Shown here piece by piece: positions 3,156 to 64,000 of a DNA stretch of 64,000 bases. Source of the DNA: Haliotis rufescens (Eukaryota); the NCBI RefSeq assembly GCF_023055435.1, contig NW_025963791.1, positions 806,001-870,000 of the forward strand. The letters are read 5' to 3'. Numbering within the stretch: the stretch's first letter is position 1; each line of letters starts with the position of its first letter. Made by a program: the position numbers and the translations under genes. The notes under the pieces are model-generated. The model had not been told where the DNA came from. It made no database searches and saw only the letters and a program-made list of their open reading frames with translations.

Positions 3156-3410
3156 TATATATATATAGATGTGTTAGTTGTTTTATGTCTATCATTCTGT
3201 GGTAAAGAAGTAATGCTGTGGTCTACTCAATGTATATATACATACATATCCAATGTAAAGAATCTATACTATGATAGATTCCTGTTAACTTAGTGTAACC
3301 ATTAGCCAATATACACGACCTATTGTATTTGCATGAACCTAGGCAGGTTGTAAGGGATTAATTCGGAAATATATCTTTTCAGTACATGCAGATAAGTATG
3401 CGTGTATGAG

Positions 3411-5910: not shown

Positions 5911-6772
5911 TGAAGGTGTGTGCATGCAATGAAGTATGTATGTAGAATGAAATGTACTACGTATTGAGTTGATGTTTAAAGACATCTCAAGCACATGTGT
6001 TATTTGTGTACCTATATGTAGATGATCATGTGGTACCATGTATGTTTACTTATTGAACCGATCCTTACAGGACTGCACGAGTAACTGTTGGATCGTGAAA
6101 CCCTAGGTCCACCCACCTGGCAGGTGTTTCGTATCCTGGTTCATGTCAGTGTATCAGTGTGCATATATTGACCAGTGTCACATAAAGGTTACTGATTCAG
6201 ATAGTCATGACAGATGTGTTATATACATCCGGGGTTTATTTATTTAAGAAATAAACGACCACAAGTCATTTATTTCTTCCATGAGATATCCACATTTTGT
6301 ACAGCCTCTTTAACATGTTTAAGGATGTTCATAAAATGTACAAGCTTTAACAATATTGACCCATATTTAGATAATGATGACTGAATATAATCTCGGCAAT
6401 AACGGACAAGTCCCTTTTAAGAACAGGGGGGGTAAAGTTTGGTATTTCCCTGATACTCTCACAATTTCCATGGCGATTATCTGCACCATTTCTCTCAATA
6501 CCAACTGTCATCTCTCCCACTTTTGAATGCGATCATCTGCCACTGCATTCATCTGTGTTGCCCAGCTACATCTATGGGGAATAACTCACTAGACACTTCC
6601 CTTTAAAAAAATAATATCATCGAATTTACATCATGAAGTTGCAAGTGTTTGTTCAAATCTCCAGAAACAACATCATGATAGAACAATTTTTTATCATGAA
6701 ATAAACCACACTTCATTCTTCGTGATTTATATCTTAGCTATATATCATATAATGTGATATCTGTAGCATGTA

Positions 6773-15860: not shown

Positions 15861-16200
15861 CTTTCCCAGATGCGTAGAAAGAGAAATTATGATTTGAATG
15901 GCTTTTTCTCAATTTCAACAGTATAACTATTCACCCGCCATCTTGGTTTGTTTAAGTCACGTGACTGCAAAGTAACCGTTTAATATACATACTTTTTTTG
16001 TAGTTGTGAATCGCAAAGCATTTCTTAATAAACTATGTTCACATATCTATATATGAAATATAAAAATAATTTCAGATTTGCTAGAAAACTAGTTCACGAT
16101 TTAACGAGAGCGTCATGTTGCCATGGCGATGACAACATCCGCAGTAATGGATGCCTCCTAAACAGGAGACAAATAGATTTTTCCAAAATGACAAAGTGAA
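15861..16200. promoter_or_regulatory. Bidirectional promoter ENKD1 / C2orf81-like: YY1-type CCGCCATCTTGG (15935-15946), palindromic E-box AGTCACGTGACT (15955-15966), RFX X-box GTTGCCATGGCGAT (16117-16130)
   Basis: Motifs seen in sequence between two divergent genes. A minus-strand donor (AAG|GTATTG) at 15861 is the likely end of ENKD1 non-coding exon 1. Confidence 0.65.
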
Positions 16201-40700: not shown

Positions 40701-43700
40701 TGGCAGGTCGTGTCCGTGAATGCCACTGTGGCAGGTCGTGTCCGTGAATGCCACTGTGGCAGGTCGTGTCCGTGAAAATGCCACTGTGGCAGGTCGTGTC
40801 CGTGAATGCCACTGTGGCAGGTCGTGTCCGTGAATGCCACTGTGGCAGGTCGTGTCCGTGAAAATGCCACTGTGGCAGGTCGTGTCCGTGAAAATGCCAC
40901 TGTGGCAGGTCGTGTCCGTGAATGCCACTGTGGCAGGTCGTGTCCGTGAATGCCACTGTGGCAGGTCGTGTCCGTGAATGCCACTGTGGCAGGTCGTGTC
41001 CGTGAATGCCACTGTGAGTGAGTGAGGTTTTACGCCGCTTTTAGCAATATTCCAGCAATATCATGGCGGGGGACACCAGAAATGGGCTTCACACATTGTA
41101 CCCATGTCGGGAATCGAACCCGGGTCTTGGGCGTGACGAGCTAACGCTTTAACCACTAGGCTACCCGACCGCCCCGAATGCCACTGTGGCAGGTGATGTC
41201 CGTGAATGCCACTGTGGCAGGTGATGTCCGTGAATGCCACTGTGGCAGGTGATGTCCGTGAATGCCACTGTGGCAGGTCGTGTCCGTGAATGCCACTGTG
41301 GCAGGTCGTGTCCGTGAATGCCACTGTGGCAGGTCGTGTCCATGAATGCCACTGTGGCAGGTTATGTCCTTGAATGCCACTGTGCCAGGTTGGAACATTT
41401 GTTTTATTAGACACTTTACTATTTATTATTAATAAATCAGGGTTAAATTACCAGACTCAAAATATTGAGTAATCATACATCACCATGGTGAAATCATGTG
41501 CACTGCCTATCCCCTGGGGCCAGCATCTGCAAGCAGCTAGCAGCCTACAGTGTCTGGGTAAATCCAGCAACAGTATTTCTTGCCATGTTCCAGGCATATT
41601 TCATACAGTAGTGCTTTAGATTGCCAGGGAGGCAGGTTCACTGACCCAAGGAAGAACAACTGACCCTCCGTCTGTACAGTATGTTTCAAATCTGGACTAT
41701 GATGGTGACATGACCCTCAAGGACTGACACCAGTCTCTGTGACTACAAAACTCTGTATTTATGAAGTCACTTGAGTGAAAAATGGAAGTGTTGTTACCGC
41801 ATCGTAACCTCTTGTTTCAGGGTAGCTGAGAAGGGCCTCGCCCTGGGTGGATCAAGCGGAGGGGTAAGACTGAGTGAGTGAGTGGGTGCTGTTTTATGCC
41901 ACAGCAATATCACAGACGGTCAGGATGGGCTGTGAAGCACAGTCTTGGCCAGGCAAACCAGTAAAACAACTGGCATGAGTAAAAGTCGCCTGACTATGAC
42001 ACACAACCACCTGATGCTCAGTCTGCCATCATGACAAACATGGCAAACTTTTCTGCCCAGCCTGTATATAAAGGCATCAAGTAATTATTAATGCAATGTT
42101 TAAACATAAAGGCAACATACTGTATATTTCATAGCCTTTGGGTTTATTTTGTTTACCCTTATGGTATGATTTGTTTGTTTGTTTGTTGTTAACGCTGCAC
42201 TCAGCAATATTCCAGCTATATGACGGCAGTCTGTAAATAATCGATGATCCGGTGATGACAAGCATCAACCAAGTCAGCAAGCCTAAACACCCAATCCAGT
42301 TTATGGTATGGCTTGAGATGACAATCGATCAAATAGACATAACTCTATATTGTGACTTTTCTGCACTAACATGGGCTACAACTTCCTCCATATCTCCAGG
42401 GCTCGCATTTGATAAACCTACACTAAACCCTGGACCCACTTTCGTGGATCCCACCCTCTGTTTTCATTTACATTCTACTGACCAATCAAACATCACGATA
42501 GGGAGAATGGAAATGGGTAGAGGAGGTGGACGTAAAGACATCCTTTGCGTCAAAATGATTTTTAAGGGCTTTCTTTTGCATTTCAACATATTTTTTTATG
42601 TTTCTTAACTTGCAACTATTTTTATCAGTGGGACTGCCCACCATGTTCTTGATATTGCCAACCCAATATTGAAGCTGGTTTGTAACTCAGAATCGGATTG
42701 GTCCTTTAGACTAAGAGAGTGTAGAAAATCAAATTACCCCATGCAAATCAAGGCGATTATTTTGAGATTGCAGGAATGACAGGCATGGACGCATGGGTAA
42801 GTGTAGGTTCACCGAAATGCGAACCCTGGAGATACAGAGGATGGGACTCCAGCTTAATTAGTCACAGTACAATTAGTCATTCTGAGACTGCATGATTGTA
42901 TGTGAGTATGGGACCACGGACAGGATACGTTCACCAAACAGTTACTGTCTTTGATAGATATCAGATTCCATGGTCTAGACAGTTAACCAGTGCTGCTGAT
43001 GTTGTTATTAATACCTCTTACATCTACATCCTCAGGCTTCTATCCTGGATCTACACACTGGAGCTTTGTCAAAGGATAACGCATTCATTGATATATACAG
43101 GTAGTAGTAGTCTGCTGGCTGTTGATGAATATGTTAGTGAGATTGTGTTTACTTTACAGACCCTTGTAGCAGTCGGTTTACTGTCTGTATCAGGACAGGA
43201 GTGGTAGATTCTACTAACGGCTGGGACGATTCCAAATGTATTTCCCAGGGACCCGGACCCCCTATTACCTGACCCTACCCGGTTACCCCAAATCTCTGAT
43301 TGGGAATGGTTTTACCCTGGCAAAAACTATTTATATATAAGTGTAAACCGATTTTGTCGTGCATACACTGGAGCTGACTGAAACTTTATCTTTACTCAAA
43401 CATATGAAAGTCAGAAGGTATGTGTGCACAGTCAGTAAGCAATGCAAACATTAGCCACTTGTTGTGTAACCATGGAGTTTTATGGGTATTGTCAATAAAT
43501 AATATATCACGTGACCAACCATGGGTCCCAAGTACCCAGGTTGCCTGTCCCAGCCCTAGTAGATACAGGTTGTTCATGTAGGAGTTCAACATTCCTCACA
43601 AACCAGGTCACAGATCTATACACATGGTTGGGGTGTCAGGACCCACTTGAAATGGTGAAAGTTAGGGATGCTGGATCTGGAAAACATATTACAAAATGAC

Positions 43701-45932: not shown

Positions 45933-48900
45933 TCCTTCCATGTTTGTGAATAAGACACAATAAAAACATATTCTTCTATCAGTGTAAGCTCAGTTGCTCT
46001 CTGACCAGCTGATTTCTAGTGGACATTATTGATTATGTGTGGGTGGGCTCTTTAAACCAGGTCCCAGTGAGATTTTCTCTGTGCCTTGGGTGCTGGGGGT
46101 GTTACATATGTTCACAACCAGGTGTTTGATTTCCCTCATGGGTACAAGTATTCTGTCTCACAGTCCCTGAACCATATGACAAACCCTTGTGACCAGCCCT
46201 TACTGTACAGAAATACCTCTAAGAGAAGCAAGTCTAGATTTTCCTCAGGTTCATCTCTTAGGGGCTGCTCCTTTTCAATTTAAATGTAGTTGCTGTTTCT
46301 GTGATAATTATATATTTTCTGAGACTAAGCGTTAGTATCGGCTAATAATGTGGTGGGGTGGCTTGAACAATGTGAGGTTGGTTGGTTGGTTTGTTTGTTG
46401 TTTAACACCGCACTCAGCAATATTCCAGCTGTATGTCTGCCGTCTGTAAATAATCAAGTCTGGAAATCATGAGCATCGATCCACGCAATTGGGATACGGA
46501 TGGATCCGGGTAGAATAGGTCTTCAGTAACCCATGTTGCCATAAAAGGCGACTATGAATGTCGTAAGAGGTTACTAACGGGATCGGGAGGTCAGGCTCGC
46601 TGACTTGGTTGATGCATGTCATATTGCGTCATATAGCTGGAATATTGCTGAATGCGGCGTTAAACAAACAAGCAAATAAATGGGATACGATGACATGTAT
46701 CAACCAAGTCAGCGAGCCTGACCACCCGATCCCGTTAGTCGCCTCTCTGGATTGTCTGGTCAAGACTCGATTGTTTACAGATCGCCGCCATATAGCTGGA
46801 ATATTGCTGAGTGCTGCGTTAAACAACAAACTAGCTACTAAAACAATTTTGTCCAAGCGTGGTTTGTTTGAACAGAAAGAGCTTCGTACCAGCACTGAAT
46901 AGAAAACGTTAAAACGCCTTCAACACAACAACGATGAGAAAGAGAATACGCACTCTTGTTAACAGTAAAAGATCTTAATTTTTCTTGAAAACAGCATCAG
47001 TGTTGATATTCCAGTTGCTGACTTGGCGTTAAACCAAACTCACTCACTAGCCTGGGAAAGGCCGCTGAACATTGTCCCCTTATTAAAGTTAGCTTCGTCG
47101 TTTGAGACAATTTAGAAACACATGTCAAATCAGGTTAAAAGCCTTGCAGATTTCAAGCACGTGTTCACCAGCATCATCACGTGATGTCATAGTTACGAGG
47201 TCTACCTATCAGGGCTCATTTCCGTTGCGCTAGTTTCCAGAGCGCGTTAATTCCAGACGACATGAATCGAAACAAGTAACGTGTATTCAATAACTGAAAC
47301 GGTGCATGTCGATTTGATGGCAAGAAGCTGATAAAATGGAGAATATATGCTTCGACACTGATATTTCTACTATTTACACGATACGATAAACGTTGTTTCC
47401 TATTTGTGATGTGCATTATAAATCTGGAAGGATATCAATATAGAAACGGGTTTTTTTTTATTCTTGTCTAGCTGTTAATTTTGAACAAACGTTGCACATG
47501 ACAAGGTAAAGTGCAGGAATATATAAATAATTAATCTGTTCTGACCATGTTCACGTATAACTTATTACTAGTTCCCTTAGAATAACATGTGAGATAATGC
47601 CACAGCTATCTGTTCTGATTAAAATAATTAAACCGTATGTCTTTTCTATTATCCAATATTAACAACATAAGAACTGTACGCAAAATGAGCTGTTCACTCC
47701 ACCGATTCTGGGCATGTGTAATAGCTAGTTTCATCATCTGTACTAACAACAGTAAATACGGCAAAACGATGCAATTTGCTGTATCCATTTACTTGACGTT
47801 AATCTGTCTCGCCTCACAAGAACAGGCTGAACATACAAGAAATATATTACTGGTTTGACAGGCAATATAATAATGCCCACAATGTTTGTTACTCTGACAT
47901 ATTGGAATAAGGCACTACACCTGCCGATGCATTTATTAGTTTCATTTTAACACGGTCTGTTTGACTATGTAAACATATTCAACCTGAATTTTGTGATATA
48001 TCCTAGTAACATGTGAAAGTGCTTTTCACTTTGTATTCTGTACCTCCATAAGAGCATATTTGCTTATGTGACGTTTGACAATATTTATTCAGCTGGTCTT
48101 TATTTATGAATATATAGAGAATCTCAGTGTCTTTTGATATCAAATATATCAACACGAGTTGATAAAAGTGGACAAAACTCCGATAAAGACACGTCAAAAT
48201 ACACGAGGGCGTGATTTTATTTAGCAACTTATATCATTCTTAAATCGAAATACGCGCAAAAAGATCAGTGATTTAAAATTATAAAAGCGATATCTACAAT
48301 GTACATATAGCCCAAGCGGTATCTCCTGTGGGAACCAGTTTTGGATGATAAACAGTTATGTATGCAAAAGCGTCAAGGCTCTCGAGAAGTGAGTGTAGGT
48401 TTATTGCTGTATAATTCCCAATAAGCAAACTGTTACCATTAACTGACTGCATGTCGTAATGGACCATAAACTAGATCGGGTGGACAGTCTTGGTTGATTG
48501 CTGAAGTTTATGGGCCTATTAGCTTTTGTAAACTAACATGATGAGCAAGCATTGTGTGTCGGTTTACCTTCAGTTAATCAAATCCCAAAGTCTCTCTGCA
48601 TCTGAAGAACCGAATCGATGAGCTGGAAATTTTTTTCTGACATAATATGTCAGAAATTCGTGGTTATATATAACATTTCGCTTTCCACAACCTATGATTC
48701 CTACCATGTGAATTTGGAGTTATGCTAAAAGAATATCCATTTAATTTCCACCAAGGATCTCAGGAATCTGTTTAATCTAATAACACACACCCTACATCTC
48801 ACAAAAATCAGATCTAAGTTGTGGTTACTGCTTTGTTTAGCGGAAGCAAGAACTAACATCTGATTTTAATGAGACACCCCGCCCCCTTTACCCTCTCTCA

Positions 48901-49211
48901 ATGTTACATAATGCTAGAGAGTTGTGTTTAAATGTAGAACATAATTCCAACATTTCATGGTATAAACTAACATGCAATTACAAGGGAAACTTACACCACC
49001 AGAACGGAAAACAACATTTATGAAAATATTAAAATCTGGAATGACAATAAGGGTCATGAAAATATTCATTCATATAAGATAATATAATTTTGCATTATTC
49101 AAATAGTCGAAATAGTCATCTTGTGTTCTTTTGGAACAGTTTTACAGAAAATATTTAGGTTCTTAAATGCTATAAAAGTTCCACTAGTTTTGAGTCACAT
49201 GAAATGTCCAT

Positions 49212-50263
49212 TTAGTACAGAGTGAACAATCTCTTGATGAAGCTGAATACACTGGAGCTGCAGCATGCTGTCACAAATGACTGTGGTGGCGTTATTTCTT
49301 CCAGGTGGCTCATGTCAATGAGGACATATGTGTCTGGCTTTACATGCTTCACTGGCTTTACGTGCTGTACTGCAAATGGTCCTGTTGGATCTCCCAAGTC
49401 TATCTCGGGGATGTCTTGCTCCAAGTTCATGGAGGAACCACACAGTGACGGACGGGCAGGGTTGGGGAGAGGGGCCTGGGTTATGGGCAGGGAATCAACT
49501 TCAGCAGTTGAGAGCTTAGAGAGGAAAGAGAAAGAGCGTATAGATGGTTTACAGAATAAGTAAAGCAGACAAAAAGTGTAGAATATTGTTAAGGTAATGT
49601 ATGGGGGTTAGTCATAATCCGTTGATTCCAACCAAATTGGAATAAACAAATGGTTTTTAACCTGTGAATTTCCATAAACTAATGTCAAAGTTATCTACGT
49701 GCACTTGTTTTTATCATGATTTTAGAACAACAGTCAATGGCATGAAAACTATATGTCTAAATATACAGTACTTATCTTTATACGTTTCCAAAGAGCCTAT
49801 ATGTGACTCCTGATGTTAGGATTCCCCTATAAGCCCATGTTCTATGTTTAGGCATAACCCCCCTTTTACACAAACACACAAAAATGCCCTACATGACCTA
49901 CTGGGAGAGGAACAGGAAGGTCGGAGAGGGAGGCAGCAATGGTAGGTCGCCGAGATTTTCTCAACTCTTCCCGAGCTGCCCAAAGAAATGAAGCATGAAC
50001 AAATGGTGCATAAACCGTTTGCCTCACTTTCAAGGCAAATCAGAAAAATAAATTGACAGTTAAAATAAAGTTGACCCTATGCCTTGAAATGAAAATAGAG
50101 TAACCTGTTACGTGCAGGAAGTTATCCAGGAAATCGCGTTTGATCAACGGGCATAAATCCTCCGGATCCAAAGCCAGATGTATCAAAAGACGTACCAAAT
50201 ACTAAATCCACAATACTAAAATATGATACCTTGATGAAAGACGCTTGCCACACTCGTGAACAT
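49212..50263 (-). CDS. Uncharacterised 136-aa protein, 3 exons (paralog A)
   Basis: Exons 50263-50230, 49975-49902, 49514-49212. GCACCATG start, GT-AG introns, phases 1 and 0 consistent. Translation: MFTSVASVFHQAREELRKSRRPTIAASLSDLPVPLPLSTAEVDS..VKPVKHVKP..ACCSSSVFSFIKRLFTLY*. Confidence 0.72.
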
Positions 50264-50346
50264 GGTGCTGACCTTGCGTGAAGTGTGTAACAAATCGCAA
50301 AATAAGAGCGGAGACTTGAAGTTTGCAACAGTGATGCTAAAACAAC

Positions 50347-50395
50347 AATGGCGTCGTTTACAGACAAAAGTCACCATGGAGACGTTCTCGCGAGA
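50347..50395. promoter_or_regulatory. Promoter motifs of paralog A: X-box-like GTCACCATGGAGAC (50370-50383) and palindrome TCTCGCGAGA (50386-50395)
   Basis: Located ~110 bp upstream of the ATG. Identical in paralog B (59433-59458). Confidence 0.55.
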
Positions 50396-50699
50396 TCACA
50401 ACGTTTTTTGATGAACTGGTACCCGGTATATATGATGAACCGGTATCTTGTGCGCTCTGCGTAGAGCGCTATGAGTCTACTTCTTGGGGCGAGTGAGTTT
50501 GGTTTTCCGCCGTATTGGCCTCACACATTTTACCTATGTTGGGAATCGAACCGGATCTATTTATGTCTCAAGTGATTTCATTCATGACAGATAACCCATT
50601 ATACTAGATCTGCACATTCCTAATCCAAACAAAATCAAGGTTAGGAAGTTTGAGTTTTTATATTTTTCAGTTGGAAAGCTGGAAAACGAGAGAGGTTTT

Positions 50700-53600
50700 T
50701 GTAGGGTTATCTATAATATTGTATATGACTATGGTTAGGTGCTCTACCGCCTAAACATTAGTAGCTCTGTTATGCGAGATGCGAGAGTGATCTCCCTTAG
50801 ATCATTTCCCATGTGGAGGCTGTATACTCAACACTCAGCACAATAAATTTAACCTACTATCTTCAAATATATATACTGTGGTTTATTGAGAAGACATAAC
50901 ATGATGGGAAGTCCATGTGCTTTTTGTGAAGTGTTGGACATTTTCTTCTGGTGTGATAAAAATGGCAAATAACTGAAAGCAACCACAGTTACCTCAGTTA
51001 TTACCACAGTCAACATACAGGGTGAACCCACCTGAACACTTTGACTTTACAAAACCATAATCTTGGCCAAAATGGGCACGAAGAAACGAAGTCATTTCAA
51101 ACAGTGATTTAAAAGTTTCTGAGACACTTTGTAATTTCTCATAATGTGATACATGAGAGAGCTGTATTTAACAGACGCATACATGGTGATGTAGCAGGGC
51201 GTGGAGTCATCCCACAGATGATATCCTTACCTTGTCAGCTTGCTGATGGGGTTAACCTCTTTGGTCATGTGGACAAGGCGTCCGACCTGTTATCAGAAGG
51301 CCCGTGGTTCGAATCCCATCACGGTACTCGGAAAGTTTATGGCCGCTACATTAGCGCCCAACGTGTAGCGGCCATAAAATTTCCGTGTACCTTGATGAAG
51401 TTCAAGATCGATTGTGGTGCGGCTGTCACTGCCATATCTGATACATGTTTCAAGAAGCTTGGTAATGTCAAGCTTGAAAAGACCAAGAAGAAATTACTTG
51501 GCCCAGCTAAAATAAAACTTGACATCATAGGGGTGTTTACTCCGAAGCTAACCAAAGGCAGCAAGGTACATCACAAGACATTTATGTTGTGAGAAACCTT
51601 GACAGAAGTCTACTGGGGAGACCAGCCATAAGAGCCTTTGAATTGATCAAGTTTGTAGACTCCGTCACAATTACTGATGTGGAGAGAGACTTTCCATCAT
51701 TGTCAAAGGTCTGGGTGAAATTCCGGGTGAACATGACATAGAACTAACTGATAATGCTGTACCCTGTTCTCTTAACACACCAAGATGTGTACCAAGACCA
51801 CTCCTTAAAAAGGTCAAGAAAGTGCTTGAGAAAATGCAGGATCTGCAAGTCATCGAACCAGTTACACATCCAACTGACTGGTGTTCAGGTATTGTCGTCG
51901 TTACGGAGGGGAAGACAGGAGTGAGAATCTGTGTTGATCTGACACAGCTCAACAATAGTGTGAAGAGACATTTACGCAGTGCCTGCAGTTGATCATCATT
52001 CCCAGTCAGATTAAAGGTGCGTAGTACTTTACTCACTTAGATGCTAGTTCAGGCTTTTAACAGCTGAAGTTGTCAGACAAAGCATCCAAGTTAACAACTT
52101 ACATAACTCCATTTGGCCGATATTGGTTCAAATGCCAGGATGCCATTTGGAATCTCGAGTGCACCCAAGATATTTCAACAAACAATGTCTCAAATCCTGA
52201 AAGACCTTCCTGGTGTAATCTGCCTGGTGGACGACATACTCATCTATGGCTTGAGTACTCCAATGTCTAGCAGATAATGATGTCACACTCAACAGGGACA
52301 AGTGCGAGTTCAACAAGACTAAACTGAAGTTTGGTGGACATGTCATCAGTAAGAATGGTGTTCAACCTGATCCGGATAAAGTCAAAGCCCTTGTCAACAT
52401 GAAAACCTCATACAGACAAAACTGAGCTGATGGATCATGGAAAGTAGTAATCTTGGCATCCAGGTATCTAAGTGACACAGAGCAAAGATACGCACAAATT
52501 GAAATAGGAGCTCTGGCGATTACCTGGGAAACAGAACTGTTCCATTATTCTGTGCTTGGAAAACACTTCCAAATAGAGACTGACCATAAGCCTCTTGTTT
52601 CCATACATGGATCCAAATGTCTCAGTGATCTGTCTCCAAGATTGCAATGTTTCAGAATGAGGTTAATGTGATATAGTTATTCTGTGCTCCACACACCTGG
52701 CAAAAATCTGGCAATTGCAGATACAATTTCAGGATTGAGTGCAGAAATAAAATCTGTTGTAGCACACTGCAAAATATGTTTAAAGTACAGGAGAAATCCA
52801 ACTGAACCTCTCCTACCAACACCAATTACTGATTGACCTTGGCAGACAGTAGGTACAGACCTGTTTGAACTGAACAAAGTAATGTACATACTTGTGATTG
52901 GCTACTTCTCAAGGTAATTAGAATCATGAAACTGTCTTCTACAACATCAAAGAGTATCATCAACAGTTTGAAATCTTATTCTCTAGACATGGGATACCAG
53001 AGGTAGTTAGGACCTCAATATTCTTCACAGGACTTCCGTGAGTTTGCAAGAATATGTTGCGTAAAGCTGATGATCCATATCTTGCAATGTTGGACAACAC
53101 CTGTATCTGGTGGATTATCTCCAAGTGAGCTTCTAATGGCAAGAAAGCTGAATACAAGCTTACCATGTCATCCTACACAACTACAATCCAAACATGTGGA
53201 TGTGAAAAGCTTCAAGCAAGCTGAATCTGTGAAAAAGCTAATAATGAAAGATCAGTATGATCATCATCATAATGTGCGACCACCATCACCTGGTGATTGT
53301 GTTTGGGTAAATCAGTCTGAGTCGAAAGTGGTTGGTAAAGCTGACACCCCCCTGTCATATATTGTGTCAACCCCAAAGGGGGAGGTGAGGCGCAATAGAT
53401 GTGATCTCAAGTTAATTCCTGGTTCAGAGGATACAAGTGTCAAACTGATCCAACCAACTGTCAACAGCAGTCCTAGAAGTGCAAGTCTGTGGTCACAAGA
53501 CAATACTAACTCTAAGACTCCAATTAAAGTTATTCCCCCATGCCAGCATGTGTTCAAACTAACAGTGGTAGACATTCAAAACCACCAAAAGACTTGATCT

Positions 53601-54199
53601 TTGAAATGCATATTCCATTATATTGGAATAGCATTTAACAGCGATGTTGTATCAGTAATTTTGAAGTTTATTATTACTCAGAGTTATAGCAATGTTCGTT
53701 ATAATGTTCTCTTTTAGAAAACACTTAAAAAGTAGAATGATCTAGTAACGTAGACTAAGTGTTAGGGCTTTATTTTCAATATAATCTTATGCATAATTCA
53801 TAGGCTTTGAAGTATCAAATGTTAATTTTCTTTAAGAAAGTATGATCATTTATTTGCAGTCTTTATTGCACATTTGTGTTTAAATGCATTTAAATGCATA
53901 TATCTGTCTGTAACTAGAGCATGTAGAATGCATTAATGTTTACTTTATTTCAACTGCTTAAAGTTTTGCAATTATCTTTCCTAGAAAGGTGGATGTAGGG
54001 TTATCTATGTTATATATGACTATGGTTAGGTGCTCTACTGCCTAAACATTACTAGCTCTGTTATGCATGACTGTAGATATGCGAGAGTGGTCTCCCTTAT
54101 ATCAATGCCCATGTGGAGGCTGTATACTCAACACTCAGCACAATAAACCTACTATCTTCAAACCATATATATACTGTGGTATATTGAGAAGACGTAACA
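50700..54199 (+). mobile_element. Ty3/Gypsy LTR retrotransposon, internally deleted pseudo-element
   Basis: LTRs 50700-50901 and 53994-54199 (TG..CA), TSD GTTTT, purine tract before the 3' LTR. PR (FKIDCGA), RT (RICVDL, TPFGRY, LVDDILIYG), RNase H (ETDHKPL) and integrase (PWQTVGTDLF) remnants with stops. Confidence 0.93.
51190..51391 (+). mobile_element. 161-bp tRNA-containing LTR-like unit (TGTAGC..GCTACA), then a tRNA-Lys-type PBS and an inverted LTR end
   Basis: Internal A box tggtcatgtgg and B box ggttcgaatccc. PBS ttagcgcccaacgtg at 51351-51365. Confidence 0.7.
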
Positions 54200-55221
54200 G
54201 TTTTGAGCTTTCAGTTTTCAATTCATTACGCTGAATTGTCTCTAACCACTCCGACGAGTGCTGCGTCGTCATCAAACTTGACATCTGATCGACACATTAT
54301 ATCATGCACTAGTATCCTCATACAATCGAACCTCGTGGGGTCCTGGCGGAAAGTGCGAGACAACCAACAAAGTGATTTTTCGAAAATCAAACATCATGTT
54401 ATAAGAGATTTTTACCAAGTCTGGATGCAACACAAGATTTCAAGGCGAACGTAAATTTCAGTACCCAGGCTGCTGGTAGTGAAAGGGGCGGCATCTCAGA
54501 CGAATCACTGATCTCACTGTCCCCATCTGGATGGGTGTCATTGTTTATGTCTTGTCTCAAATAATAGAATTAACTAACATCATTTTAATCCGTTTTACTC
54601 ATTTGTCAATTTTCATGTGTCATCGGCAGTCACGTGAGAACATTTAAGTAACTTGCCGCTGGTGTGCATACAGTACTCAATTGCGTGGATCGATGCTGAT
54701 GATGTCAATCACTGGATTGTCTGGTCGAGATTCGACTATTGACAGACCGCCGTCATAAAGCTGGAATATTGCTGAGCGGCGTTAAACAACAAACAAAGAA
54801 CAGAAAAGGCATACATATCCAGCTTTCACCATTGTTGTAAGGTTTTTGTTTTGTTTGTTTATTTGTTGTTTAACGCTGCACTCAGCAATATTGCAGCTTT
54901 ATGACGGCGGACTGTAAATAATCGAGTCTGTACCAGACAATCCAGTGATTGACATCATGAGCATCGACCCACGCAATAGGGATACGATGACATGCATCAA
55001 CCAAGTCAGCGATCCTGACCACCCGATCCCGTTAGTCGCCTCTCTGGATTGTCTGGTCAAGACTCGATTATTTACAGATCGCCGCCACACCAGCACTGAA
55101 TGGAAAACGTTAAAACGCCTTCAACAAAACAACGATTAAATAGGGACAGCACACTCTTGTTAACATTCTTAAAGATCTTAATCTTCGCATAAAATGTCAT
55201 CTTTGTTGACATTGCTTGAAA

Positions 55222-55500
55222 GGGGGCACGAAAGGCCTAGTCGTCTAAGGCACCGTGATTCGCTGTGCAGAGTTGTGTCCCTTGGGCACGACAGAAACCG
55301 ATGATTGTGGGTTCGAATCCCGTTTCGACCCGATTATGTTTCTAGGGTTGTCAGCACCATACCCGTGCTCGTGGGTTTCACCGAAGTGGTAAACGTCCGA
55401 GACCTGCATCACCAGGCTTTCCTCCAAAATTTAAATTACACGCCGCCATATAACTGGAATACTGTTAAAAGTGGCGTTAAACCCAACTCACTCACTCACT
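55222..55500 (+). mobile_element. tRNA-SINE family C; second copy at 56087-56353
   Basis: tRNA-like head with a long variable arm, B box ggttcgaatccc, (CTCA)n tail. Confidence 0.75.
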
Positions 55501-58251
55501 CATTTCTTAAAAACAGCACCTGTGTTGATATTCCAGTTTAATTAATTATCTACAAATCTGAGCTACTGATAAGCAGCGTATTTGCGTAAAATACCCCCCA
55601 AAATATTCAAAACCAATTAATTTCAATTAACTTGCGTACAGAAACGCATGCATTAATAGAAAAACTCAAATGTATAAAAACAGCACGCGTAAATACCCAA
55701 TGAAGCTTTTTCAGCATGCGTACAAAGGAGCTAATTTCCGAAACACAATTACGAGCTAATTTACTTTCCGAGTCAAGCCTATATATTTAGAACAGATATA
55801 CATCTAAAACATTATTTCATTTTATTAAATCTTAAAATGGTCACTTATTTTGGGAAAACCCCAATAGCGTGATGAATAGATGAGTGAAAAAATATTGGAT
55901 ACCCAATGAAAAATGTAATAGCCCAATCAAAATAGAAACCCTAGAGTAAAAACTGGAGCTCTGACTTCAGTGCGTTATGGGATGTCCTCAGATCTTTGTT
56001 TAGCGGTAGCGAGAACTAAGATCTGATTTTAATTTGATTTGATTTTAATTTTAATTAGTTTGGCAGGGTCAATCATTATTGATTAGGGGGGCCAGGGTGG
56101 CACAGTCGTCTAAGGCGCCGCGATTCGCTGTGCAGAGTTGCGTTCCTTGGGCACGCCAGAAACCTATAATTGTGGGTTCGAATCCCTGTTCGCCCCGATT
56201 ATGTTTCTAGGTTCGTCAGGACCATTCACCCAAGTGGTAAACGTCGGAGACCTGCATCACTTCGGGCTTTCCTCCCACATTAAGCTGACACGCCGTGATG
56301 ATACTGGGATACTGTTAAAAGCGGCGTTAAACCCAACTCACTCACATACTCATTATTAATAAGGATTAACCATTTTTATTATAATTAAAAAGTGATAATT
56401 ATTTGTGTGTTTAATAGGGCGGTGGATGCCGATGATTTTGCGGTGCTAGGTTCGGGCTAATTAATAAATTTGTTTCAAGTAATTCAAAAGACACCAGATA
56501 TTGCCATGAACATGTATAGCATCAGCCAGACTATGATAAATATTTTGTAGGACACAGTATGACCATGATGGATATAAACGAATGGCTGTGGAGTGGCATT
56601 TGTAATAAAGTTACATAAAGATACATGCTATAGGCGACTATGCTTGTGGTAAGAGGCGACAAGACGGGATTTGGTGGTCAGGCTTGCTGACTTGGCGTTA
56701 AACCCAACTCACTCACTAGCCTGGGAAAGGCCGCTGAACGTCTTCCCCTTGAGAAATTTAGCTTCGTCGTTTGAGACTATTTAGAAACACATGTCAAACC
56801 AGGTTTAAAGCCTTTCAGATTTCACGCAGGTGTCTACCAGCATCGTCACGTGATGTCATGGTTACGAGGTCTACCCATCAGGGCTCATTTCCGTTGCACT
56901 AGTTTTCAGTGCGCGTTAATTCCAGACGACATGAATCGAAGCACACCTGCCGATGCATTTATTAGTTTCATTTTAACACCGTCTGTTTGACTATGTAAAC
57001 ATATTCAACCTGAATTTTGTGATATATCCTAGTAACATGTGAAAGTGCCTTTCACTTTGTATTCTGTACCTCCATAGGAGCATATTTGCTTATGTGACGT
57101 TTCACAATATTTACTCACTCACTACAGGTCATTCCGGTGAAGGTAATGTTTTGGCGGAATTAAACATCATTTTACTGGACATATTCAGCTGGTCGTTACG
57201 CATTCCTTTTTTTATTATGTAGTAAGTATAATAAAAATAACCAACAGGATTTCCCTAATTGCGTACGAGTAAACATTAATCAGCTATTTCTTCAGTGTCT
57301 TCATTTATGTGACCACGCTCTGATTCCCTTTGACCCACCCACCCCTATATTAAATTACCGATCCCCTAGGCGTTAGGCATTATTCAGCGTTAGAAACTGG
57401 CACTAGTCCTATAGTCCTTGTCAAAATTGCCCGATAGTTAAGGTATCCTAAGGATTAGTAGAAGTTTGGAATTTTTACGGGTTTTGCTATATGTTATCAT
57501 TAAAAGGACTAGTGGACTAAAATGTTAGTTTCTACCGCTGTTATGCCAAGTTATCGATATGTTCCAAGTTAAGTTTATGGGCATATTAGCTTTTGTAAAC
57601 TAACACGTTGAGCAAGCATTGTGTGTCGGTGTACTTTCGGTTAATCAAATCCCAAAGTCTCTCTGCACCTGAAGAACAGAATCGATGAGCTGGAAAATCT
57701 TTTCTGACATAATATGTCAGAAATTCGTGGTTATATATAACATTTCGCTTTCCACAACCTATGATTCCTACCATGTGAATTTGGAGTTATGCTAAAAAAA
57801 TATCCAGTTTATTTTCCACGTAGGATCTCAGGAATCTGTTTAATCTAATAGCACACACCCTACATCTCACAAAAATCAGATCTAAGTTGTTGTTACTGCT
57901 TTGTTTAGCGGAAGCAAGAACTAATTTTTAATGAGAACTCTCTTCTCCTCTCCTCCCCTCTCTCAATGTTACATAATGTTAGAGAGTTGTGTTTAAATGT
58001 AGAACACAATTCTCAACATTTTATGGTAACATGCAATAACAGGGGAAACAAACACCTGAACGGAAAACAACATTTATGAAAATTTTAAAATCTGGAATCA
58101 CAATAAGGGTTATGAAAATATTCATTCATATAACATAATTAAGTTTTGCATTATTCAAATAGTCGAAATAGGTATCTTGTGTTACAGAAAATATTTAGTT
58201 TCTTAAATGCTATAAAAGTTCCACTAGTTTTGAGTCACATGAAATGTCCAT

Positions 58252-59327
58252 TTAGTACAGAGTGAACAATCTCTTGATGAAGCTGAATACACTGGAGCTG
58301 CAGCATGCTGTCACAAATGACTGTGGTGGCGTTATTTCTTCCAGGTGGCTCATGTCAATGAGGACATATGCATCTTGCTTTACATGCTTCACTGGCTTTA
58401 CATGCTTCACTGGCATTACATGCTGTCCTGCAAATGGTTCTGTTGGATCTCCCAAGTCTATCTCGGGGATGTCTTGCTCCAAGTTCATGGAGGAACCACA
58501 CAGTGACGGACGGGCAGGGTTGGGGAGAGGGGCCTGGGTTATGGGCAGGGAATCAACTTCAGCAGTTGAGAGCTTAGAGAGGAAAGAGAAAGAGCGTATA
58601 GATGGTTTACAGAATAAGTAAATCAGACAAAAGTGTAAAATATTGTTAATGTAATGTAATGTATGGGGGTTAGTCATAATCCGTTGATTCCAACCAAATT
58701 GGAATAAACAAATGGTTTTTAACCTGTGAATTTCCATAAACTAATGTCAAAGTTATCTACGTGCACTTGTTTTTATCATGATTTTAGAACAACAGTCAAT
58801 GGCATGAAAACTATATGTCTAAATATACAGTACTTATCTTTATACGTTTCCAAAGAGCCTATATGTGACTCCTGATGTTAGGATTCCCCTATAAGCCCAT
58901 GTTCTATGTTTAGGCATAACCCCCCTTTTACACAAACACACAAAAATGCCCTAGATGACCTACTGGGAGAGGAACAGGAAGGTCGGAGAGGGAGGCAGCA
59001 ATGGTAGGTCGCCGAGATTTTCTCAACTCTTCCCGAGCTGCCCAAAGAAATGAAGCATGAACAAATGGTGCATAAACCGTTTGCCTCACTTTCAAGGCAA
59101 ATCAGAAAAATAAATTGACAGTTAAAATAAAGTTGACCCTATGCCTTGAAATGAAAATAGAGTAACCTATTACGTGTAGGAAGGTATCCAGAATTTTAGG
59201 ATCTAGGAAAATCGCGTTTGATCAACATTAATCATCTGGATCCAAAGCCAGATGTATCAGAAATACTAAATCCACAATACTAAAATATGATACCTTGATG
59301 AAAGACGCTTGCCACACTCGTGAACAT
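58252..59327 (-). CDS. Uncharacterised 142-aa protein, 3 exons (paralog B)
   Basis: Exons 59327-59294, 59037-58964, 58572-58252. Same splice sites as paralog A, with an in-frame 18-nt extra repeat unit. Confidence 0.72.
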
Positions 59328-59715
59328 GGTGCTGACCTTGCGAGAAGTGTGTAACAAATCGCAAAATAGAGAGGAGACTTGAAGTTTGCAACAGTGATGC
59401 TAAAACAACAATGGCGTCGTTTACAGACAAAAGTCACCATGGAGACGTTCTCGCGAGATCACTACGTTTTTTGATGAACTGGTACCCGGTATATATGATG
59501 AACTGGTATCTTGTGCGCTCTGCGCAGAGCGCTATCAGTCTACTTCTTGGGGAGAGTGAGTTTGGTTTTACGCCGTATTTGGCTTCACACATTTTACCAA
59601 TGTTGGGAATCGAACCTGATCTATTTATGTCTCAAGTGATTTCATTCATGACGGATAACCCATTATACTAGATCTGCACATTCCTAATCCAAACAAAATC
59701 AAGGTTAGGAAGTTT

Positions 59716-62700
59716 TCTTCAAACCACATATACTGTGGTATATTGAGAAGACATAACATGATGGGATGAGGATATTATTAACCAGGTTAGCAACTACAAT
59801 AGTCAAAAAGAGATTTTACTTAATGAACTTGTTAGTGAGCGAAAACGGAAGGTTTAATTGAAGTCCATGTGCTTTTTGTGAAGTGTTGGAAATTTTCATC
59901 TGGTGTGATAAAAATGGCAAATAACGAAAAGCAGCCACGGTTACCTCAGTTATTACCACAGTCAACATACAGGGTGAACCCACCTGAACACTTTGACTTT
60001 ACAAAACCATAATCTTGGCCAAAATGGTCACGTCGTTTTGAACGATTCAGACAGTCATCTCTTGTGACTGAAGAAGCAGATGAGGTTCAAATCAATTCAC
60101 TCATTTACCATATGGGGGATGAAGCAGAGGATATCTTGTCATCTCTGAATTTGACAGCTGAAGAAATGAAGTCATATCAAACAGTGATTGAAACGTTTCT
60201 GAGACACTTTTTTAATTTCTCATAATGTGATATATGAGAGATCGAGCTGTATAAATAACAGACGCATACAAAAAGATGGTGATGTAGCAGGGCGTGGAGT
60301 CATCCCACAGATGATATCCTTACCTTGTCAGCTTGCTGATGGGGTTAACCTCTTTTGTCATGTGGACAAGGCGTCCAACCTCGGCCTACCTTTAGAATAC
60401 AGTACCACAAACTTTTCAAACACGTGATCATACCCTATGACGTAATTTGTAGTATTGTTGCCAGTCACACCGGCGAAACAATGCCCTGTGACGTCAGGGG
60501 TCATCGAGTGTGCATAAGCTCCTCCCAGTGATCTTTCATCCTTACACGCAATGTCATTGAATACCCCCTGCGGTGTTGAGAGTTTTGAGAATTTGTTTAC
60601 TAATAATAGCCTGCGGCGGCGCATTTTAGAGCAAGCGCTAGTTTACGAAAGCACTTTTATTTTTTATTTATTTTTTATTTCGTTTTTCTCGTAATTCAAG
60701 TGGATAAAATGGTTATAAATGAACTAATATACATATATTATTTTTTCAGTTCATTATTTTTTATTATTATGCACAAGAATGCAGTTTATTAGGGATATTA
60801 TAGGCCCTATAGATTCTCTATGGCGCTGAACACATCCAAATGTCGCCAGTGTTAGGGTAGGTTACCCCGAACTCTATCCTTAGCCCTTGGATCCCCTCTA
60901 CGATAAATCACCCCTTTACGACCATTAGGGTTAGGTACTCGTTTAGTGGCGATTAGATTACCCGAAGTCTATCCTTAGCCCTTGGATCCCCTTTACGATC
61001 AATCACCCCTTTACGACCATTAGGGGTTAGGTACTCGTTTAGTGGCTATTATAGATTATATAACGGGTCCTAATATTCTTCACACAAAAACGTCGAGTAA
61101 AAAGGATGAAATGGTTTTGTGTCGAATATTTTGGCTACTGGAAACTGTCCTGGAACATTCACACAAGCCACTTTCATCGGCTACACTTTTTCAGTACTGA
61201 TTCAAAAGCGAACTCACCGTTGTGTCGTCACTAGTCATGCTTATTCCTCCCTCGTTCCTTACTATTATCCACATCATCCTTACAGTGTTCCCTACCACAC
61301 TTTTCTGTCACAAAAATCACCCGACGAATTATTAAATACCATATAATTCATGACTACTTGCGAGTTCGACGTCTGACGTCTGACGCCTGGAGCCGTTTTC
61401 AGTTTGCGGCATATCGGCTCATTCCTCACCACTCGGTATCTTGTACATTACGGAATGGGACGAGTGTGCCAAATGGCATCGGGATCATGCGTAAGTGTCC
61501 GTAGACTAAAGTCACGAGACACCATGCCTACCCGTAACCTTCGTAAGTGTCCGTCACCTATTCGACCCTTTTCGTTCAGTTCCGTAACGTCATAGGCATG
61601 ACTAGGTAAATTTGCACTACATTTAACAGTGTGGACGTAGATCAGTCAGTTAGCTGTCGGGGATAACAATCCGAAGGTCGCGGGTTCGCGTCCGACGGAT
61701 TCTCACTAAAACTGGAGAGATCGTCCTAACGAGAAGTTGTAGTACTGTGTTCTAAAGGTCCGTGGTTCGAATCCCATCACGGTACTCGGAAAGTTTATGG
61801 CTGCTACATTAGCGCCCAACGTGTAGCGGCCATAAAATTTCCGTGTACCTTGATGAAGTTCAAGATCGATTGTGGTGCGGCTGTCACTGCCATATCTGAT
61901 ACATGTTTCAAGAAGCTTGGTAATGTCAAGCTTGAAAAGACCAAGAAGAAATTACTTGGCCCAGCCAAAATAAAACTTGACATCATAGGGGTGTTTACTC
62001 CAAAGCTAACCAAAGGCAGCAAGGTACATCACAAGACATCTGTGTTGTGAGAAACCTTGACAGAAGTCTACTGGGGAGACCAGCCATAAGAGCCTTTGAA
62101 TTGATCAAGTTTGTAGACTCAGTCACAATTACTGATGTGGAGAGAGACTTTCCATCAGTGTTCAAAGGTCTGGGTGAAATTCCGGGTGAACATGACATAG
62201 AACTAACTGATAATGCTGTACCCTGTTCTCTTAACACACCAAGACGTGTACCCATACCACTCCTTTAAAAGGTCAAGAAAGAGCTCGAAAAAATGCAGGA
62301 TCTGCAAGTCATTGAACCAGTTACACATCCAATTGACTGGTGTTCAGGTATTGTCGTCCTTCCAAAGGGGAAGACAGGAGTGAGAATCTGTGTTGATCTG
62401 ACACAGCTCAACAATAGTGTGAAGAGACATTTACGCTATGCCTGCAGTTGATCATATTCTCGGTCAGATTAAAGGTGCTAAGTAGTTTACTCGCTTAGAT
62501 GCTAGTTCAGGCTTTTAACAGCTGAAGTTGTCAGACAAAGCATCCAAGTTAACAACTTTCATAACTCCATTTGGCCGATATCAGTTCAAAAGGATGCCAT
62601 TTGGAATCTCGAGTTCAACCGAGATATTTCAACGAACAATGTCTCAAATCCTGAAAGATCTTCCTGGTGTAATCTGCCTGGTGGACGACATACTCATCTA

Positions 62701-64000
62701 TGGCTCGACTCAAGAGGAGCATGCTAAGTGTCACATGAGAGTACTCAAACGTCAAGCAGATAATGATGTCACGCTCAACAGGGACAAGTGCGAGTACAAC
62801 AAAACTAAACTGAAGTTTGTTGGACATGTCATCAGTGAGAATGGTGTTCAACCTGATCCGGATAAAGTCAAAGCCCTTGTCAACATGAAAACCTCATACA
62901 GACAAAACTGAGCTGATGGATCATGGAAAGTAGTAATCTTGGCATCCAGGTATCTAAGTGACACAGAGCAAAGATACGCACAAATTGAAATAGGAGCTCT
63001 GGCGATTACCTGGGAAACAGAACTGTTCCATTATTCTGTGCTTGGAAAACACTTCCAAATAGAGACTGACCATAAGCCTCTTGTTTCCATACATGGATCC
63101 AAATGTCTCAGTGATCTGTCTCCAAGATTGCAACGTTTCAGAATGAGGTTAATGTGATATAGTTATTCTGTGCTCCACACACCTGGCAAAAATCTGGCAA
63201 TTGCAGATACAATTTCAGGATTGAGTGCAGAAATAAAATCTGTTGTAGCACACTGCAAAATCTGTTTAAAGTACAGGAGAAATCCAACTGAACCTCTCCT
63301 ACCAACACCAATTACTGATTGACCTTGGCAGACAGTAGGTACAGACCTGTTTGAACTGAACAAAGTAATGTACATACTTGTGATTGGCTACTTCTCAAGG
63401 TAATTAGAATCATGAAACTGTCTTCTACAACATCAAAGAGTATCATCAACAGTTTGAAATCTTCTCTAGACATGGGATACCAGAGGTAGTTATCTCAGAT
63501 AATGGACCTCAATATTCTTCACAGGACTTCCGTGAGTTTGCTCAACAGTACAACTTTACTCACATCACATCCAGCCCATTGTATCCAAGGAGCAATGGAG
63601 AGGCTGAGCGAGCTGTTCAGTCATGCAAGAATATGTTGCGTAAAGCTGATGATCCATATCTTGCAATGTTGGACAACACCTGTATCTGGTGGATTATCTC
63701 CAAGTGAGCTTCTAATGGGAAGAAAGCCGAGAACAAGCTTACCATGTCATCCTACACAACTACAATCCAAACATGTGGATGTGAAAAGCTTCAAGCAAGC
63801 TGAATCTGTGAAAAAACTAATAATGAAAGATCAGTATGATCATCATCATAATGTGCGACCACCATCACCTGGTGATTGTGTTTGGGTAAATCAGTCTGAG
63901 TCGAAAGTGGTTGGTAAAGCTGACACCCCCCTGTCATATATTGTGTCAACCCCAAAGGGGGAGGTGAGGCGCAATAGATGTGATCTCAAGTTAATTCCTG
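59716..64000 (+). mobile_element. Duplicated copy of the Gypsy pseudo-element (5' LTR truncated; runs off the window)
   Basis: Gag remnant (WSRRFERFR..QINSLIYHMGDEAEDIL) plus PR/RT/RH/IN remnants (YPRSNGEAERAV). Shares lesions with copy 1. Confidence 0.9.
60383..61759. mobile_element. ~1.38-kb non-autonomous TIR element inserted into the tRNA part of the mini-LTR (copy 2 only)
   Basis: Ends acctttagaatacagtac / gtactgtgttctaaaggt. Internal ~110-bp tandem duplication (~60850-61050) and a tRNA-like segment at ~61632-61696. Confidence 0.75.

Follow-up and report, generated by a model that had tools for sequence, protein, structure and literature searches.

Results

A three-exon gene in each half of a tandem duplication

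Within the window, a 64-kb stretch of Haliotis rufescens DNA, each half of a tandem duplication contains a three-exon, minus-strand gene with an open reading frame, encoding 136 amino acids in copy 1 and 142 in copy 2. The coordinates and structure given by the first-pass annotation (50263-49212 and 59327-58252) are confirmed, as are its canonical, phase-matched introns, good start and lack of stops: the start context has an A at -3, GT..AG ends are present in 4/4 introns with phases 1 and 0 in both copies, and neither spliced frame contains an internal stop. The introns of copy 2 measure 256 and 391 nt. The main features are as follows.

50230..50263, minus strand: copy 1 coding exon 1, 11 codons plus 1 nt, in which the N-terminal helix begins; the most conserved segment of the family
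49976..50229, minus strand: copy 1 intron 1, 254 nt, GT..AG, phase 1, with a weak-looking donor; skipped exactly by one contig
49902..49975, minus strand: copy 1 exon 2, 74 nt
49515..49901, minus strand: copy 1 intron 2, 387 nt, GT..AG, phase 0; the junction agrees with RefSeq protein P0003
49212..49514, minus strand: copy 1 coding exon 3, 100 codons plus stop
59294..59327, minus strand: copy 2 coding exon 1
58964..59037, minus strand: copy 2 exon 2
58252..58572, minus strand: copy 2 coding exon 3, 106 codons plus stop, with an 18-nt in-frame gain and a T to A change flanking the LIR
46679..53421, unstranded: duplication unit 1, left edge patchy, matched by 54975-64000 at offsets of 8.2-10.6 kb
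50689..54199, plus strand: LTR retrotransposon of Gypsy type, decayed, lying upstream of copy 1, with LTRs at 50689-50901 and 53983-54199

The gene had been described as missed by the ORF track; the model is correct, but RefSeq already holds an identical 136-aa protein for copy 1, XP_048248065.1 (LOC124144594, H. rufescens, uncharacterized), a record that carries no name, function or family. Searches of protein records returned no separate entry for the copy 2 product, and a main-text literature search by six identifiers found no paper. RefSeq proteins of four species share the start, the junction residues and the C terminus, and the gene is very probably translated and under selection. Two RefSeq isoforms, P0010 and P0012, instead read into the 3' end of intron 1.

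Duplication unit 2 extends past the end of the window. The gene bodies of the two copies are about 99% identical, introns included. The Gypsy-type element is a co-duplicated passenger; in unit 2, matches to its RT and integrase are retained and the first LTR is mostly lost. Its LTRs differ at 15/205 positions, as against 53/2117 between the two element copies, and its decay thus likely set in before the duplication. An intact gene does lie beside a lesion-ridden element, as first described, but the contrast is not like-for-like. The Gypsy LTR was also considered as the promoter of the gene, which is unlikely because unit 2 has lost most of this LTR yet keeps the proximal motifs. A profile search of the 64-kb window found no third gene copy; a weak match at 3-119 (E 1.1) was regarded as chance. 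Rfam gave 0 matches within 46000-64000.

Splicing and the possibility of a noncoding transcript

We compared contigs from 4 of 24 listed sequencing runs, from which, as contigs only, depth, strand and start site are unreadable; the runs carry no tissue labels. One contig of run X2 skips intron 1 of copy 1 exactly, at a shallow depth of 5.4 and with a short side of 25 letters. Contigs of runs X1 and X2 cross the exon 2 boundaries unspliced. A joint across intron 2 is not listed among the contigs of the four runs, an absence that proves nothing in contig data. These observations could be read as a weakly spliced or mostly noncoding transcript whose frame is intact owing to the youth of the copies: unspliced contigs bridge the introns, the sole spliced contig is shallow, and the reading frame of unspliced RNA ends after 15 codons. 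Between the copies, moreover, exon 3 (6/303 positions differing) is conserved no better than intron 2 (4/386), and by our reading of the alignment 4/6 of the exon 3 changes alter the protein. Nevertheless, we regard this explanation as highly improbable, given full-length frames with the same ends in four species and in paralogues at 33-36% identity, conservation that peaks on short segments, and the fact that the runs are not recorded as RNA, so that they may consist of DNA.

Promoter region

Two motifs lie upstream of each copy.

50370..50383, unstranded: X-box-like near-palindrome GTCACCATGGAGAC, copy 1, 107 nt before the ATG
50386..50395, unstranded: copy 1 palindrome TCTCGCGAGA of the CGCG-element type, 123 nt before the ATG and within a CpG-rich patch
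59433..59446, unstranded: X-box-like site GTCACCATGGAGAC, copy 2
59449..59458, unstranded: palindrome TCTCGCGAGA, copy 2

The palindrome reported upstream of the gene is thus present in both copies. These are the only two exact occurrences of TCTCGCGAGA in the window and represent one duplicated event, against 0.37 matches expected even with one mismatch allowed. The CpG observed/expected ratio is 1.23 at 50230-50480 compared with 0.51 for the window, at about the 95th percentile of 300-nt windows. PMC6192621 describes TCTCGCGAGA as the CGCG element found in CpG promoters of vertebrate housekeeping genes. Activity in such promoters depends on the motif and often runs in both directions. Of their attributes, the abalone region has the exact motif in a CpG-rich proximal position and, judged by eye, no TATA box; our literature search found no account of the element in molluscs. 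Chances are about even that this CpG-rich, CGCG-type promoter would give broad expression, with the RFX-like site possibly adding a tissue bias.

An X-box about 110 bp upstream had been proposed. A site is indeed there in both copies, but it fits only the loosest consensus, RYYNYY-N-RRNRAC, which has 24 matches in the window against 29 expected by chance, and the match is therefore uninformative. The stricter motifs GYTRYY-N-RRHRAC and RTNRCC-N-RGYAAC (PMC2375033), searched with a 2-nt spacer, are matched by neither copy of the site. A contig of X15 spanning 50216-50398, from an organism about 98% alike, shows 2 differences, none in the X-box. A YY1-like stretch following the X-box was rejected on failing the YY1 pattern CGCCATNTT.

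The site had led to the suggestion of an RFX-driven sperm or cilia protein, a role that might coexist with the adaptor function discussed below. In its favor, the site is near-palindromic, is present in both copies and lies 107 nt from the ATG of copy 1. Fast-evolving, duplicated, lineage-restricted genes are, besides, often testis-biased. According to PMC2375033, palindromic X-boxes are over-represented among true targets and many lie 60-140 nt from the ATG, but the presence of an X-box is not by itself predictive of RFX control, and even genes with conserved strict X-boxes fall in the cilia set only 22.9% of the time. Three better X-boxes occur elsewhere in the window without any link to the gene. 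The family proteins show no sequence similarity to solved structures in the PDB, which include abalone lysin and sp18. With only the loosest consensus matched, both stricter ones failing and the neighboring TCTCGCGAGA being a housekeeping element, the sperm or cilia assignment is not supported; an RFX-driven role of this kind is unlikely, although a role in testis may exist.

A family found in abalones

The relatives come from four Haliotis species and fall into three subfamilies that share 33-36% identity. None was found outside Haliotis in searches of protein records, viral contigs (108 pattern matches, 0 confirmed) and metagenome contigs (141, 0 confirmed), and the family has thus been found only in abalones as far as searched, in agreement with its earlier description as lineage-specific. 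The family is also multi-copy, in line with the suggested expansion: counted, beyond the window, from protein records only, H. rufescens has at least 5 loci including window copy 2, and H. cracherodii and H. asinina have tandem-like gene pairs on one scaffold. Uncharacterized relatives include LOC124115404, LOC125384447, LOC124135662 and H. rubra LOC124282147.

As the first-pass annotation stated, no known family could be assigned. Pfam gave best E values of 0.24 (6 proteins) and 0.076 (10 proteins), neither passing the cut-off, and NCBIfam 0.16. PDB sequences gave a best E of 0.49 in one search and no match at E up to 10 in another. The ESM Atlas yielded no usable feature match for P0003 or P0013, all structure rows being below TM 0.5. 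No mobile-element domain or viral protein was matched in Pfam or the viral contigs. Literature searches found no paper on the family, and 10.1101/085571 contained nothing decisive for the abalone gene.

Conserved termini and a putative membrane anchor

Three segments of the copy 1 product are considered below.

49392..49406, minus strand: EIDLG codons (residues 73-77), at the core of a 24-aa unit that relatives carry 1-3 times
49317..49334, minus strand: LIR-like hexapeptide codons (residues 97-102), matching the strict LIR pattern
49215..49265, minus strand: codons for residues 120-136, comprising the Cys pair and the amphipathic helix at the C terminus

Three features are conserved across the family: a helix at the N terminus, the xIDL(G/S) motif in one to three copies, and an amphipathic C-terminal helix flanked by Cys. 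Across subfamilies, identity to P0003 is 0.61-0.64 in the N-helix and 0.46-0.57 at the C terminus, and 0.09-0.33 in the linker. All motifs named at first pass are present, but RRPT (2/15 proteins) and the VKHVKP repeat (KHVKP in 3/15) are not family-wide and are recent features. Both AlphaFold models place helices at the termini only, with pLDDT of about 50; the protein is predicted to be disordered with one helix per end. The LIR-like site falls in coil at the same pLDDT, a value that shallow alignments likewise lower.

The amphipathic C terminus with Cys, by contrast with RRPT and VKHVKP, is kept in all three subfamilies. Its terminal 11-mer has a hydrophobic moment of 0.52-0.66 in 14/14 proteins, exceeding shuffles (p<0.05) in 12/14; the helix has a Cys pair before it in 11/15 proteins and a single Cys in 4/15. 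A transmembrane segment is unlikely, since no 19-residue window exceeds 1.54 on the Kyte-Doolittle scale. S-acylation and membrane binding seem somewhat probable, in which case the Cys-flanked helix would hold a small disordered protein on a membrane.

Discussion

Short motifs and candidate partners

The conserved N-helix, xIDL(G/S) repeats and LIR-like site suggest that the proteins probably act as short-motif adaptors. Strict and looser LIR patterns are given in PMC5119064, the looser being poorly specific. The strict pattern occurs in copy 1 and in 8/9 subfamily-A proteins (8/15 overall), counts that come from related sequences and not independent tests, for a motif chosen post hoc among 8 patterns; the subfamily-A matches fall on four distinct hexapeptides, and the chance of a match in shuffled sequence is 0.015-0.03 per protein. 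In subfamily C, 2/2 proteins carry the looser pattern at another position. The pattern is found in 0/4 proteins of subfamily B and is missing from H. asinina P0006, and in window copy 2, which matches neither the strict nor the loose form, the YxxI core alone remains. The residues invariant across the whole family are I-D-L, with no aromatic among them, and a different ligand may therefore explain the conservation. ATG8 as the partner is a tentative possibility.

One such ligand could be SUMO, or some other xIDL partner, bound in place of ATG8 by a multivalent adaptor whose repeat number (1-3) tunes avidity. The xIDL(G/S) motif, a pattern derived from the family itself, is present in 15/15 proteins; a hydrophobic-hydrophobic-D-hydrophobic core in acidic surroundings is present in 13/15; the 24-aa unit around xIDL occurs two or three times over in H. 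rubra and H. asinina; and xIDL resembles the VIDLT core of SIMb. Yet the loose core also arises in 12-32% of shuffles, and SUMO readers are seldom membrane-anchored. None of the published SIMa, SIMb and SIMr patterns (PMC3395311) is matched (0/15 each), and a reading with SUMO or another xIDL partner is unlikely.

Descent from a known autophagy family was also weighed, with the proteins as a truncated, fast-evolving branch of the DOR/TP53INP regulators. In PMC3314686 (Fig. S1), the sea-slug and lancelet DOR N termini (MFNSVAKYLW, MFSAVTNLLF) look by eye like the family's first residues, and D-L/F also follows the LIR of DOR. Region 2, which defines DOR and carries the invariant LIEHPSM, is, again by eye, absent from all family members, 10/10 members gave no match to Pfam DOR at E up to 10, and the LIR lies near the N terminus in DOR but in the last third of the abalone proteins. 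Such an origin is very improbable indeed.

Our preferred reading, which we hold tentatively, is of a predicted-disordered protein, found only in abalones, that likely clings to membranes through its Cys-flanked helix and likely acts as an adaptor docking ATG8 by the LIR-like motif; the motif would recruit ATG8-family autophagy proteins to the membrane-anchored adaptor. A more elaborate version is improbable: abalone-born selective-autophagy receptors, lipid-anchored, with the LIR binding ATG8 and xIDL(G/S) as a cargo module, possibly RFX-induced and serving spermatid organelle remodeling. Under that version, both xIDL(G/S) copy number (1-3) and gene number expand.

Disordered proteins that are confined to one taxon and tandemly duplicated are common, and RefSeq already lists this gene; the base case is therefore ordinary. 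The present analysis adds an outline of the family, with its three subfamilies and conserved short motifs. Should the LIR bind ATG8, the family would represent an autophagy adaptor that arose within one lineage, in a genus used in aquaculture, and would exemplify a young gene joined to a core pathway by a motif of six residues. The promoter, for its part, offers a place to ask whether the vertebrate CGCG element works in a mollusc.

Comparison with known systems

Membrane-anchored ATG8 receptors include BNIP3/NIX. Like these and DOR/TP53INP, the abalone proteins are small, predicted disordered and acidic, with a short N-terminal helix and a Y/F-x-x-I motif with an acidic flank; unlike them, they have no DOR region 2 and no transmembrane segment, subfamily B is without a LIR, and no homology was found. 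CYSTM-type small proteins, which are Cys-anchored, resemble the family in their Pro-rich disordered body and C-terminal Cys-containing membrane module, but the abalone proteins lack a Pfam match, and their terminal Cys number only 1-4 and precede a helix that is amphipathic and mostly basic. With RFX X-box ciliary promoters the gene shares a nearly palindromic 14-mer whose distance from the ATG is typical, but the abalone half-sites both end in GAC and the stricter consensus motifs failed. CGCG-element (BANP/ZBTB33-type) CpG promoters have been described in vertebrates; the abalone resemblance lies in the exact TCTCGCGAGA within a CpG-rich patch a short way upstream of the gene.

Gene structure and duplication

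The minus-strand three-exon gene proposed in the first-pass annotation is present in both tandem units, with GT..AG ends at all four introns and no internal stop in either frame.

Coding exons of the two gene copies
Copy 1: 50263-50230, 49975-49902, 49514-49212, minus strand; open frame, 136 aa
Copy 2: 59327-59294, 59037-58964, 58572-58252, minus strand; open frame, 142 aa

No third copy was found within the 64-kb window. Blocks from about 46679 to 53421 are repeated 8.2-10.6 kb farther along, and unit 2 extends past the window end. Exons 1 and 2 are identical between the copies; there are 4 differences over 386 positions in intron 2 and 6 over 303 in exon 3, which also has an 18-nt gain, whereas the distal flanks are 4-8% divergent. 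The sequence pattern is consistent with a recent duplication, and gene conversion may have acted across the gene body. Intactness of both copies alone says little. The unit also carries a decayed Gypsy-type element (reverse transcriptase and integrase matches; LTRs 50689-50901 and 53983-54199). Its two LTRs are separated by 15 differences in 205 positions, compared with 53 in 2117 (and 7 indels) between the element copies of units 1 and 2, and the element therefore likely predates the duplication. Its lesions are an unfair control for gene intactness, and the proposed contrast between intact gene and riddled neighbour is not one of like with like.

Short, very-high-copy, SINE-like repeat fragments flank the gene on both sides (50517-50552 and 48831-48874). 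The 3' half of intron 1 (49976-50099 and 59038-59159) has 0 of 122 mismatches between copies, and its frame is open into exon 2. RefSeq isoform models are usually transcript-based, and in the alternative isoforms P0010 and P0012, from two other species, the 3' end of intron 1 replaces exon 1 as coding sequence.

An abalone protein family

All five candidates in a search with exon 3 matched, and all were from Haliotis; the best, XP_048248065.1 (LOC124144594, H. rufescens), is identical to the copy 1 product. Profile searches gave 7 matches among 8000 scored candidates, 10 among 2577 and, with the subfamily-A profile only, 3 at E up to 0.001 among 1.84 billion representatives; word-index searches were limited to proteins of 55-308 aa. 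Every named match was an uncharacterized Haliotis protein, and searches of viral and metagenome contigs confirmed no relative. Family proteins had no Pfam, NCBIfam or PDB match, in keeping with the earlier failure to assign a known family. The 16 full-length records form three subfamilies that share 33-36% identity.

Subfamilies
A: copy 1/copy 2 type; H. rufescens, H. cracherodii, H. rubra, H. asinina
B: 163 aa; found in H. rufescens and H. cracherodii only; scaffold lengths differ from those of A
C: 121 aa; found in H. rufescens and H. cracherodii only; scaffold lengths differ from those of A

A tree of 15 of these records plus copy 2 exon 3 (alternative isoform P0010 omitted) supported the subfamilies at 98-100 bootstrap; haplotigs could account for some of the H. 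rubra loci. The family is thus multi-copy and, among the databases searched, lineage-restricted, as had been suggested, within the limits set by vetigastropod sampling and by the loss of detectable similarity that a fast-evolving disordered protein can undergo.

Splicing was checked by comparing copy 1 with 4 of 24 listed sequencing runs, none on record as RNA. One contig of run X2 lacks precisely the 254 nt of intron 1 (plus-strand ends CT..AC; depth 5.4, short side 25 letters), which weakly supports splicing but no particular tissue. No intron 2 joint was listed in these four runs, and contigs of runs X1 and X2 cross the exon 2 boundaries unspliced, as might be expected of a mostly non-coding transcript. 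We consider this very unlikely, since open frames with the same ends recur across four species and in all three of the old paralogue groups; this evolutionary case for a coding gene is stronger than that from the run contigs. An X1 contig also skips 341 nt inside intron 2 (49540-49882), but the ends of this gap are not splice sites. The contig is about as deep as the full-length form and likely represents another allele or a paralogue with a short intron 2.

Probable promoter

An X-box-like 14-mer and the palindrome TCTCGCGAGA lie 107 and 123 nt upstream of the copy 1 ATG, close to the previously reported ~110 bp. CpG observed/expected in this patch is 1.23 compared with 0.51 for the window, and among 300-nt windows copy 1 ranks at about the 95th percentile and copy 2 at the 91st-93rd. 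The X-box-like site had been read as evidence of an RFX-driven sperm or cilia protein. It matches the loosest consensus, RYYNYY-NN-RRNRAC (24 window matches, 29 expected), but neither GYTRYY-NN-RRHRAC nor RTNRCC-NN-RGYAAC. Its palindrome pattern, derived from the site itself, has 3 matches against 0.05 expected. According to PMC2375033, RFX control cannot be predicted from an X-box alone, and that study's cilia set includes 22.9% of the genes in which a strict X-box is conserved; true RFX targets are enriched in palindromic boxes, which favours the RFX proposal a little. With both stricter consensuses failed, an RFX-driven sperm or cilia role, itself compatible with the membrane adaptor discussed below, seems possible but unlikely.

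TCTCGCGAGA corresponds to the CGCG element found in the CpG promoters of vertebrate housekeeping and ribosomal-protein genes (PMC6192621); a literature search found no mollusc study of it. Lying next to each other in CpG-rich sequence, the two sites probably belong to a real promoter, but they do not fix the tissue.

Protein features

AlphaFold models of the copy 1-type protein P0003 and of P0013, another Haliotis protein, are low-confidence coil with helices at the ends only, to which shallow alignments may contribute.

Helices in the models, and sequence identity between P0003 and subfamilies B and C
P0003 helices: residues 5-18, 126-133
P0013 helices: residues 5-23, 141-161
P0003 residues 1-18: 0.64 (B), 0.61 (C)
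P0003 residues 114-136: 0.46 (B), 0.57 (C)
P0003 IDL unit: 0.41 (B), 0.35 (C)
P0003 Pro-rich stretch: ~0.32 (B and C)
P0003 KHVKP stretch: 0.09-0.19 (B and C)

Among the motifs put forward earlier, the Cys pair recurs in 11 of 15 proteins, but RRPT (2/15) and KHVKP/KHIKP (3/15) are not family features. The KHVKP stretch varies in length by six-residue steps, and a contig of run X15, from an organism about 98% alike, has an in-frame 18-nt insertion there (49333). The C-terminal 11-mer is amphipathic, as claimed, in all 14 proteins examined, with a moment of 0.52-0.66 that exceeds shuffles at p<0.05 in 12 of them. The common N-terminal 11-mer is likewise amphipathic (13 of 13), and none of the family proteins examined has a transmembrane-like window. 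By eye, the N terminus resembles that of DOR (PMC3314686, Fig. S1), yet DOR region 2, as shown in the same source, is absent, and a truncated DOR offshoot is highly improbable.

Subfamily A proteins carry one, two or three copies of a 24-aa unit around xIDL(G/S). A strict ATG8-binding (LIR) pattern, taken with a looser one from PMC5119064, matches 8 of 9 of these proteins (shuffle chance 0.015-0.03 per protein). The position of the match is shared, with four different hexapeptides among the eight; the pattern was picked among eight patterns after the alignment had been viewed, and the relatives are not independent. The looser pattern matches both subfamily C proteins at a different position, and there was no match in subfamily B (0/4), the H. 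asinina protein P0006 or copy 2. Acidic residues, which help LIR binding when they precede the core (PMC6499816), do so here. SUMO or another partner as the xIDL ligand is rather unlikely. The SUMO-interacting patterns of PMC3395311 and PMC3901395 fit 0 of 15 proteins.

Other features of the window

The strict X-box RTNRCC-NN-RGYAAC occurs at 10670-10683, 16117-16130 and 24060-24073 (3 matches, 0.34 expected). The last is followed by a YY1-type CGCCATTTT and a short frame. Downstream of the boxes at 24060 and 16117 are 'DVW.F' stretches with no Pfam match, which are reminiscent of the BED-finger starts of hAT transposases.

Three long minisatellite arrays (123-2133, 3402-5914, 39978-41391) are a source of spurious repetitive open frames. 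An inverted pair of ~880 nt at 83% identity (2256-3162 and 29338-30316), with a short direct match, probably represents dispersed-repeat copies. Remnants of a Tc1/mariner-type transposase (30807-31584; Pfam HTH_Tnp_Tc3_2) and another retroelement (19444-22493; broken frames, weak reverse-transcriptase match at 21441-21815, E 0.0012) are also present, and an open stretch of 139 codons without Pfam match (28470-28889) is possibly an exon of another gene.

Discussion

From the observed gene, family and conservation pattern we infer each of the binding steps that follow. The protein is most likely a peripheral membrane adaptor. Its Cys-flanked amphipathic tail, probably S-acylated, would attach to membrane, with the acidic linker rich in Pro and Ser as a tether and short motifs as binding sites for partners; ATG8 is the best-named candidate partner, through the LIR-like site. 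No paper on the family was found for six identifiers (main texts) or in literature searches; supplementary abalone expression tables may list the loci. The family offers one testable lead. The gene was already predicted in RefSeq, and taxon-restricted disordered gene families such as this one are of a common kind.
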